Shown piece by piece: positions 56,021 to 57,427 of a stretch of 64,000 bases of DNA. A program made the position numbers and the translations under genes. The DNA is from an uncultured Gemmatimonadales bacterium (GTDB taxonomy: Bacteria > Gemmatimonadota > Gemmatimonadetes > Palauibacterales > Palauibacteraceae). How positions within the stretch are numbered: the first letter of the stretch is position 1; every line of letters starts with the position of its first letter. A model generated the notes under the pieces. It was given only the letters and a program-made list of their open reading frames with translations. It was not told the origin of the DNA and made no database searches. The stretch is from the NCBI GenBank assembly GCA_963783385.1, contig CAWANJ010000001.1:64001-128000 (forward strand). The letters are read 5' to 3'.

Positions 56021-56416
56021 TCAGCGGATCATGACGTAGGACTGGGACACCGGGCTCAGGACCCGGAGTCGGATCTGGTCCCCGGGCCGGGGGAACAGCT
56101 CCTGTGAGACGTACTGCCCCGCGCCGCCCGTGATCAGGTTGGCGATGAGCCGGATGCCCCCGCTCCCGATGATCAGGGACTGGGGCACCACGTAGCTGGC
56201 GCTGTCCTGGACTGCCAGGACTCCCAGCGAGTGGGTCAGCGTCTCGTGGGCCACGTACACGTGTACGGCCGATACGCCCTGATTGTAGACCCACACGCTG
56301 ACCGGGTCCGGCGCCCCCCTGGACTGTTTGGACAGGGTGGCGCACGCCCCCGAGGCCAGCGCCAGCACCACGAGCCCGCCCAGCCACCGCCGGGCGCGGA
56401 CCGCCGAGGGCCTCAC
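56021..56416 (-). CDS. Hypothetical lipoprotein (paralog of 56933-57376)
   Basis: Lipobox SGAC and a beta-rich domain. GTGA overlap with the OsmC stop. Confidence 0.8.
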   Translation of the reverse strand: MRPSAVRARRWLGGLVVLALASGACATLSKQSRGAPDPVSVWVYNQGVSAVHVYVAHETLTHSLGVLAVQDSASYVVPQSLIIGSGGIRLIANLITGGAGQYVSQELFPRPGDQIRLRVLSPVSQSYVMIR

Positions 56417-56895
56417 GACCCATCTCCGGGGCCGCTCGCTTCATCCTCGATGTCGGCCGTCCAGGACACGACCACCGCGCCGCGCAGGCTCTGCGCCGTC
56501 GGGCACCTGGACTGGTGCCGATCCAGCGCACGCTCGACCCGCTCCCGCGTCCCGGCCGGGATTCGCAAGCGGTAGTGGATGCGGATCTCCGTGAGCACGG
56601 GCACGCCGTCTCGCACCTCGTTCACGCCCTCGACCTCCGCGGTGATCGCGTCGGGATCGAGCCGGACCTCGCGCACCTCCAGTGCGCCGTTGAGGGTTCC
56701 CAGCATTCACCCGCCCGCGGTGGCGACCAGGAAGTCCACGGGGAGGGGGAGGTCCTCCGCGTCGATTCCGTAGTGCTCCTTGATCGGGCCGTGCACGCCC
56801 ATGTCGAATTCGTGCCCCGTCGCCAGCCGAGCGCGGCGATGCACTCCCCGCACCTTCCGGACGGTGCACCGCGACACGTAGAAGGGGTCGGTCAT
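56413..56895 (-). CDS. OsmC/Ohr-family peroxiredoxin, predicted selenoprotein (UGA codon 63)
   Basis: Two in-frame ORFs joined by TGA at 56707-56709: P.DFLVATAGG-U-MLGT...HQSRCPTAQSL. SECIS-like hairpin downstream. Confidence 0.8.
56667..56695 (-). promoter_or_regulatory. Bacterial SECIS-like element
   Basis: CCUC-aacg-GCGCAC-uggag-GUGCGC-GAGG; the apical loop begins 25 nt after the UGA and has G at position 2. Confidence 0.65.
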
Positions 56896-56932
56896 CCTCA
56901 TCTCCCGGTTGGAATCCTGGCCGGCCCGCCCG

Positions 56933-57376
56933 TCACCGGACGCTGATCACGGACTGGCTGAGCGCGTTGTTGATCGTCCATTCGATCCGGTCTCCGGCCG
57001 ACACGAACACCGGCTCCGAGATGTACCCCTGGACGGACCCGATCGGGTCGGCGATGAGCCGCACGCTCTGATCCGATGCGAGGATCGAGCGGGGGATCAC
57101 GTACGTGGCCGTGTCCATGCTGCTCAGCTGACCCAGGGACAGGTTCTGTCCGGCGCCCATCACGTAGACGTGCACGGTGTTCCAGTTGTAGTTGCGCACG
57201 AACAGGGTCACGGGCGCGTCCCGCATGGACGTGTCGCCGGCCGCGCCCTTCCCTCCCATGCTCGCGCACCCTGCCACGACCAGCCCCGTGAGGAGCAGCA
57301 GGCCGAAACGAAGGGAGAGCCTTCGGGCCAGGCGGCGGCTACGGGCGACCGACGAGGCGAAGCGTGAGGTACCCAT
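56933..57376 (-). CDS. Hypothetical lipoprotein
   Basis: GGAGGA RBS, lipobox VAGC and V.N....VHVYV...SLG...Y..P...RLIA...GD.I motifs. Confidence 0.8.
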   Translation of the reverse strand: MGTSRFASSVARSRRLARRLSLRFGLLLLTGLVVAGCASMGGKGAAGDTSMRDAPVTLFVRNYNWNTVHVYVMGAGQNLSLGQLSSMDTATYVIPRSILASDQSVRLIADPIGSVQGYISEPVFVSAGDRIEWTINNALSQSVISVR

Positions 57377-57427
57377 GGCTTCCTCCGGCTGGGTTGGGAG
57401 GCGGCGGTGCACCGACTCCCCAGCAGG

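Follow-up and report, generated by a model that had tools for sequence, protein, structure and literature searches.

A probable selenocysteine-encoding gene of the OsmC/Ohr fold in an uncultured Gemmatimonadales bacterium

Gene Organization at the Locus

The minus strand of the window (the whole stretch of 64,000 nucleotides analyzed here, from an uncultured Gemmatimonadales bacterium) contains, according to the list of open reading frames (ORFs), two ORFs of 64 aa (56707..56901) and 97 aa (56413..56706) that lie in the same frame. An earlier note on this DNA had described two in-frame ORFs split by a TGA only; the ORF list bears this out and places them on the minus strand, the sole break in the frame between 56416 and 56895 being the TGA at 56709-56707. 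Read through this codon, the frame encodes 162 aa if translation starts at ATG 56901, and 160 aa if it starts at ATG 56895. The whole gene, counted from the latter, spans 56413..56895 (minus strand) and consists of 160 codons, from ATG 56895 to GGG-TCG at 56416, plus the terminal TGA at 56415-56413.

The in-frame UGA (56707..56709, minus strand), predicted to encode selenocysteine (Sec, U), is residue 63 when counted from ATG 56895 and residue 65 when counted from ATG 56901, and falls at the peroxidatic position discussed below. The residues around it are ..PLPVDFLVATAGG-U-MLGTL.., and the peptide spanning the site reads ..VATAGG-U-MLGTLNGALEVR.. The codon of the second (resolving) cysteine, TGC, is found at 56503..56505 (minus strand) in the motif R-C-P-T-A; this residue is Cys131 in the 160-aa numbering (motif C-P-T-A) and Cys133 in the 162-aa numbering, in which U is residue 65, with a spacing of 68 residues between the two. 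The 160-aa read-through product of the earlier note, with P.DFLVATAGG-U-M and a CP motif 68 residues further on, was thus correct in its coordinates and motifs.

Judged by the orthologue start positions and by the spacing of the sequence GGGAG (56906-56902), which lies 6 nt ahead of ATG 56895 and 0 nt ahead of ATG 56901, the second ATG (56895) is more likely to be the start. A start codon occupies the position of ATG 56895 in 18 of the other 19 orthologue loci, and lies one codon earlier in the remaining one (L041); in these reconstructions the start codon nearest to the expected place was taken.

The gene is flanked on the same strand by two ORFs encoding lipoprotein-like proteins that match no Pfam family. 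The downstream one (131 aa, 56021..56416, minus strand) begins with a GTG that overlaps the stop codon of the putative selenoprotein gene (GTGA), and the upstream one (159 aa, 56933..57412, minus strand) ends 37 nt before ATG 56895. The two are paralogous (37% identity across 94 residues; both N-termini resemble those of lipoproteins), and their arrangement around the gene was found only in the genus of the window and, in part, at one further locus; they are neighbors and not part of the enzyme. Further upstream, on the same strand, there are genes for an alpha/beta hydrolase and an aldo/keto reductase, and downstream, on the opposite strand, a gene for an FKBP isomerase. A Pfam search of 132 stop-to-stop frames of at least 450 nt in 15 orthologue loci revealed no common neighbor: FKBP was found in three loci, methionine sulfoxide reductase MsrB (SelR) in two, and the rest differ by lineage. 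As the neighbors vary in this way, the context gives no clue to the reductant of the enzyme. At loci L029 (952-1485, 2492-3013) and L042 (904-1545) the gene adjoins msrB (SelR domain), and L029 also has genes for a ferritin-like protein (Dps-type) and FKBP nearby. These MsrB-adjacent loci represent an oxidative-stress neighborhood that is not seen in the window.

Predicted Fold and Catalytic Positions

The translated product matches the Pfam family PF02566 (OsmC) over residues 51-147, that is, across the TGA, with 50.2 bits against a gathering threshold of 27.5 (E 3.6e-13). An AlphaFold model built from a 33-sequence alignment shows a single domain (mean pLDDT 93.9, pTM 0.85). Comparison of the model with the PDB by Foldseek gave 63 matches at E <= 0.001, with 2onf_A at the top (E 1.6e-9), followed by 1ml8, the Ohr proteins 6ebg and 6d9n, and the OsmC proteins 1ukk, 1nye, and 1qwi; all top matches listed are OsmC/Ohr proteins. 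In phmmer alignments with PDB sequences, U pairs with the first cysteine of Thermus thermophilus OsmC (1ukk) and of Ohr (6d9n), and Cys133 (162-aa numbering) with the C-P cysteine of the same two proteins. We take the first cysteine of OsmC/Ohr proteins to be the peroxidatic one and the C-P cysteine to be the resolving one; the placement of the UGA at the catalytic cysteine, as proposed earlier, agrees with this alignment.

Both redox columns (U/Cys and the C-P Cys) are invariant in all 33 aligned sequences, as are, upstream of the TGA, residues Y8, R22, a G-V-H motif, and D56. Comparison of the gene with 18 orthologues (L041 was left out since its register differs) revealed 368 synonymous and 311 non-synonymous codon changes in 1116 comparisons upstream of the TGA, and 500 synonymous and 389 non-synonymous changes in 1566 comparisons downstream of it. 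Both sides are synonymous to a similar degree, and purifying selection acts on both halves. On the evidence of its frame, domain match, and predicted structure, the minus-strand stretch 56413..56895 forms a single intact gene whose product has the OsmC/Ohr fold.

Conservation of the UGA Codon and Public Annotation

When related loci were read codon by codon, all 20 orthologue loci (65-99% identity, motif G-G-U-M-L-G-T-L) and all 20 paralogue loci (33-46% identity, motif G-G-U-L-T-G-T-L) had TGA at this column. Reference-genome and metagenome collections were scanned with an alignment of Cys forms as the query. Among 80 reference-genome loci, 77 had TGA, one had TGC, and two were left unparsed by the motif script; among 80 metagenome loci, the respective numbers were 72, two, and six. 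The titles of the reference-genome loci refer to Gemmatimonadota (including Longimicrobiales), Candidatus Eisenbacteria, Acidobacteriota, and one "Deltaproteobacteria" bin.

In a set of 61 related genomes, 35 had a match, and TGA was present within 50 of the 53 matches among those listed. The three matches that lack it are a partial one that lies entirely on the downstream side of this column, and two OsmC proteins with 24-25% identity. In a sample of 401 genomes of the phylum, 112 had a match at E <= 1e-15, with TGA in 150 of 150 among the matches listed (27 further matches exist).

Full-length homologues with cysteine at the U column are rare. Cysteine was found there in all 24 full-length database homologues of one alignment (A3), which had been picked for being Cys forms. 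The pairing of Cys with Sec that the earlier note had expected among homologues was thus observed, with TGA throughout the orthologues and paralogues that were read. Three database entries print a residue other than cysteine at the Sec column, glycine in P0004 and tryptophan in P0010 and P0011; these probably reflect TGA translated under another code table, and the entries were left out of the alignment. Related genomes commonly contain the paralogous Sec-containing OsmC-like clade (L123-L142), which has the motif G-G-U-L-T-G-T and the second cysteine in C-P-V; a search of the own genome of the window with the query for this gene did not find it.

Of the best 120 protein-database matches, 91 are pieces of 89-102 aa, as expected from the earlier suggestion that gene callers would split the gene, and the two fragment sequences that were inspected both start at the methionine directly after the TGA. 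The public name of these relatives is "OsmC family protein", carried by fragments of 89-96 aa, and the named homologues belong to Gemmatimonadota.

Such gene calls imply that the TGA is a real stop, and that the 97-aa C-terminal piece is made alone, perhaps together with a separate N-terminal peptide of 62-64 aa. The ATG directly after the TGA of this gene would provide the start of the C-terminal piece. Yet in many of the listed reference-genome loci the codon is followed by CUG or CUA (UGA-CUG, UGA-CUA) and not by ATG, so that the ATG is not a conserved start. Moreover, both the Pfam match and the modelled single domain extend across the TGA, the 62 codons upstream, which contain the invariant positions listed above, are constrained to the same extent as those downstream, and the C-terminal piece would be half an OsmC domain lacking the first catalytic residue. 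We consider termination at this codon very improbable, and read-through is the reading adopted here.

Stem-loop Downstream of the UGA Codon

A SECIS-like stem-loop is situated within the coding sequence at 56667..56695 (minus strand). It consists of a lower stem (56695-56692 with 56670-56667), a 4-nt bulge, an upper stem (56687-56682 with 56676-56671), and the loop UGGAG (56681-56677). The upper stem and loop read GCGCAC-UGGAG-GUGCGC (56687-56671), and the lower stem, CCUC/GAGG, is weaker. The stem-loop starts about 12 nt after the UGA codon, and its apical loop starts 25 nt past the A of the codon. Bacterial selenoprotein genes, according to the description of this element in PMC1088965, have a stem-loop directly downstream of the UGA, and its small apical loop contains a guanosine; the element described here agrees with this in its UGGAG loop 25 nt after the UGA.

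Folded as a single sequence of 73 nt, the region is not more stable than expected by chance (z = -0.94; 37 of 200 shuffles at least as stable), so that the case for the hairpin comes from the comparison of sequences. Covariation was assessed in 89 distinct 54-nt stretches from the UGA onward, taken from 97 Sec forms. In the upper helix (columns 23-28 with 34-39), 99.6% of the cells are paired, and both sides change in three of the six pairs; the most variable pair is A-U in 57 sequences, G-C in 26, G-U in five, and unpaired in one. The covariation score was 0.233 against 0.150 in shuffles, of which none out of 500 reached it, and slid controls gave 0.011-0.114. The lower helix is paired in 74.2% of the cells. 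The switch from A-U to G-C couples a synonymous change of an alanine codon (GCA to GCG) to a Val-to-Ala replacement (GUG to GCG), a coupling that protein constraint alone can hardly explain. The bulged hairpin noticed earlier, with its loop at 25 nt after the UGA, is thus present and conserved with compensatory changes; like the TGA, it occupies the same columns in all orthologues that were read.

Of the 72 metagenome Sec forms, 71 have the loop UGGAx and one has UGGCA; in the reference set the loop is also UGGAx, save for a few loci (e.g., L063, L064, L075, and L087). All three Cys forms for which DNA was available (L043, L151, and L153) have UCGAG, the guanosine at the second position of the loop being lost because the leucine codon is CUC in place of CUG. 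The upper stem partly persists in these forms, whose number of three is too small for a contrast with the Sec forms, with four of six pairs in L151 and six of six in L153 as counted by script, and six of six in L043 as read manually; the encoded peptide G-A-L-E-V/A-R therefore accounts for part of the stem. Among the paralogues, some share the same hairpin and others have a stem a few nucleotides further 5', with a GGA loop. A search of Rfam at E-values up to 10 matched no SECIS family; a match to the ASdes sRNA (14.7 against 40 bits) is an unrelated chance hit.

Selenocysteine Machinery

The own genome of the window contains the components of the Sec pathway (selA, selB, selD, and tRNA-Sec), as the earlier note had anticipated. 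First, selA was found with a score of 534.8 bits. Second, selD (362.7 bits; L001 1480-2520, minus strand, contig C9) has an in-frame UGA of its own in the motif SHGAG-U-ACK, a position that we take to be a known Sec/Cys site; on this reading, selD is a second selenoprotein gene of the genome. Third, a tRNA-Sec was detected with 76 bits and was also called by ARAGORN as tRNA-SeC with the anticodon TCA. Finally, selB is present, in two frames in the deposited assembly.

Compared with the intact selB of a sister genome, the deposited sequence has one extra base at L007 2163-2164 (contig C9, around 420107). In all four public runs, from four studies, the contigs that span this site lack the extra base and have exactly one base fewer. 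Four related genomes have selB in open frames of 746-895 aa, and a fifth, G017, has an in-frame TAA. Since the extra base is missing from the contigs of all four runs, the frameshift is, from these sequences, an error or rare variant of the assembly and not a loss at the population level; an assembly error is probable, and further single-base indels may be present in this assembly. Two matches with the GTPase region of the selB model, equal in score (C1:235451-236350 and C1:252691-253590), are probably duplicate EF-Tu genes.

The UGA could be read as another residue, as tryptophan or glycine under a different code, or as cysteine or tryptophan by near-cognate suppression, and the tryptophan (P0010, P0011) and glycine (P0004) printed in database entries at this column would fit the former case. 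Against this, TGA serves as an ordinary stop in the region, terminating both this gene and its upstream neighbor, and homologues without TGA have cysteine at the column, not tryptophan or glycine. The full Sec pathway, selD with a UGA at the known Sec site, and the conserved hairpin with a guanosine-containing small loop behind the codon also argue for Sec, and we judge decoding as any other residue to be just as improbable as a true stop. A pseudogene with a nonsense mutation, or a TGA created by a sequencing or assembly error, is the least probable explanation and is contradicted by the comparative data: the assembly contains one or more single-base errors or variants, as selB shows, but TGA is found in independent assemblies (20 of 20 orthologues, 20 of 20 paralogues, and 77 and 72 of 80 loci each), and both halves of the gene are under purifying selection.

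Proposed Function of the Protein

It appears highly probable that 56413..56895 is a genuine selenoprotein gene encoding a 160-residue protein of the OsmC/Ohr fold, with the UGA at 56709-56707 decoded as Sec, and that selenocysteine takes the place of the catalytic cysteine. The genuine selenoenzyme put forward in the earlier note is supported by the reading frame, the fold, the conservation of TGA, the hairpin, and the machinery, all of them features of sequence, from which we infer the incorporation of Sec. In the scheme that we infer for Sec insertion, peroxidase chemistry, substrate, and reductant, SelB and tRNA-Sec would decode the UGA as selenocysteine, guided by the downstream stem-loop. 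The Sec residue would then be placed at the start of a long active-site helix, in the place of the OsmC/Ohr peroxidatic cysteine. By analogy with these proteins, the enzyme would reduce a hydroperoxide via a selenenic acid, which may be captured by Cys131 as a selenenylsulfide and recycled by a thiol reductant.

The proposed reading corrects the annotation of what is probably an intact antioxidant enzyme, which now appears either as a truncated "OsmC family protein" or split into two fragments; the mis-annotation reaches this genome and well over a hundred related ones. It also marks the phylum as a consistent user of selenocysteine.

Evolution of Sec and Cys Forms

A quick maximum-likelihood tree was built from the 192 distinct sequences among 206 rows; the U/C column was masked, and 10 paralogues formed the outgroup. 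Metagenome rows shorter than 130 aa and the entries P0004, P0010, and P0011 were left out. In this tree, which has few columns for many rows and many open forks, 27 Cys forms are nested among Sec forms at several points, which requires a minimum of five changes of state. As the tree is rooted with Sec-containing paralogues, this nesting suggests that the Cys forms are secondary Sec-to-Cys replacements. Sec occurs at the same column in two old paralogous clades that are 33-46% identical, and about 97% of the sampled members (reference-genome and metagenome loci) are Sec forms. Sec is the parsimonious ancestral state, since the outgroup and the basal branches carry it. The three Cys forms with DNA have, in addition, lost the guanosine of the hairpin loop.

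We give an even chance to the view, drawn from these observations, that the OsmC-type peroxidase lineage has been selenium-dependent since its origin and remains so. If true, this would invert the common view of Sec forms as rare offshoots from large families of Cys proteins. The Sec and Cys forms would provide a natural pair for probing the contribution of selenium to OsmC-type peroxidase chemistry.

Comparison with Known OsmC-like Proteins

With the OsmC proteins of E. coli and T. thermophilus (1ukk) and with Ohr (6d9n, 6ebg, 1n2f), the predicted protein shares the fold and both aligned catalytic positions. It differs from these OsmC/Ohr thiol peroxidases in sequence (12-22% identity) and in the first position, which is predicted Sec here and Cys there. 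The best structural matches are two OsmC-like proteins from structural genomics, Ta0195 (2onf) and 1ml8, with TM-scores by target of 0.87 and 0.80 and identities of 14% and 22%, respectively; as no function is known for either, they say nothing on the mechanism.

Among the NCBIfam models tested, the best match was NF041052, "OsmC-related (seleno)protein" (OsmC_like_Se), with 24.5 bits against a cut-off of 95. The scores for the OsmC subfamily (TIGR03562, 15.8 bits against 85.8) and the Ohr subfamily (TIGR03561, 13.8 bits against 88.85) were also below the cut-offs. The paralogues and Cys forms scored 20.7-26.1 bits with NF041052 and likewise fell under the OsmC and Ohr subfamily cut-offs, and a search of the own genome with NF041052 gave nothing above its cut-off. 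As all scores lie under the cut-offs, these models would not flag the clade as a selenoprotein. The earlier assignment to the OsmC family thus stands at the level of the Pfam superfamily PF02566, and not, by NCBIfam score, at that of the OsmC, Ohr, or OsmC_like_Se subfamilies.

OsmC-like selenoproteins as such are no new kind of biology, having been published since 2005. The pages on this family in PMC1088965 report their prediction from the Sargasso Sea (three sequences, COG1765, motif UxxT). The table of the 2008 GOS survey lists five Sec forms of the OsmC-like protein, next to a figure of 161 in the adjacent column that is taken to be the count of Cys forms (PMC2398784), and entries for the family appear in reviews of 2022 and 2026 (PMC9312934, PMC13188914). 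The gene had earlier been called hidden, which holds for its absence from public annotation and not for its kind, in print since the 2005 account (PMC1088965). A literature search of titles and abstracts found no paper linking Gemmatimonadetes to an OsmC-like selenoprotein.

The present clade was compared with the family of Zhang, Fomenko and Gladyshev (2005) through the printed motif and counts. As described there (PMC1088965), the published proteins likewise combine the OsmC domain (PF02566/COG1765) with Sec in place of a redox cysteine, have Cys-containing homologues, and are encoded with a stem-loop downstream of the UGA whose small apical loop contains a guanosine. Their motif is given as UxxT, whereas the protein described here has U-M-L-G-T, with threonine at +4 (U-x-x-x-T). 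In the counts printed in the surveys, few Sec forms stand among many Cys forms, whereas in this clade the Sec forms dominate (77 against 1 in reference genomes and 72 against 2 in metagenomes). Thus, the protein is very probably of the same kind as the known OsmC-like selenoproteins, and it belongs to a widespread clade that scores under the cut-offs of the NCBIfam models tested.
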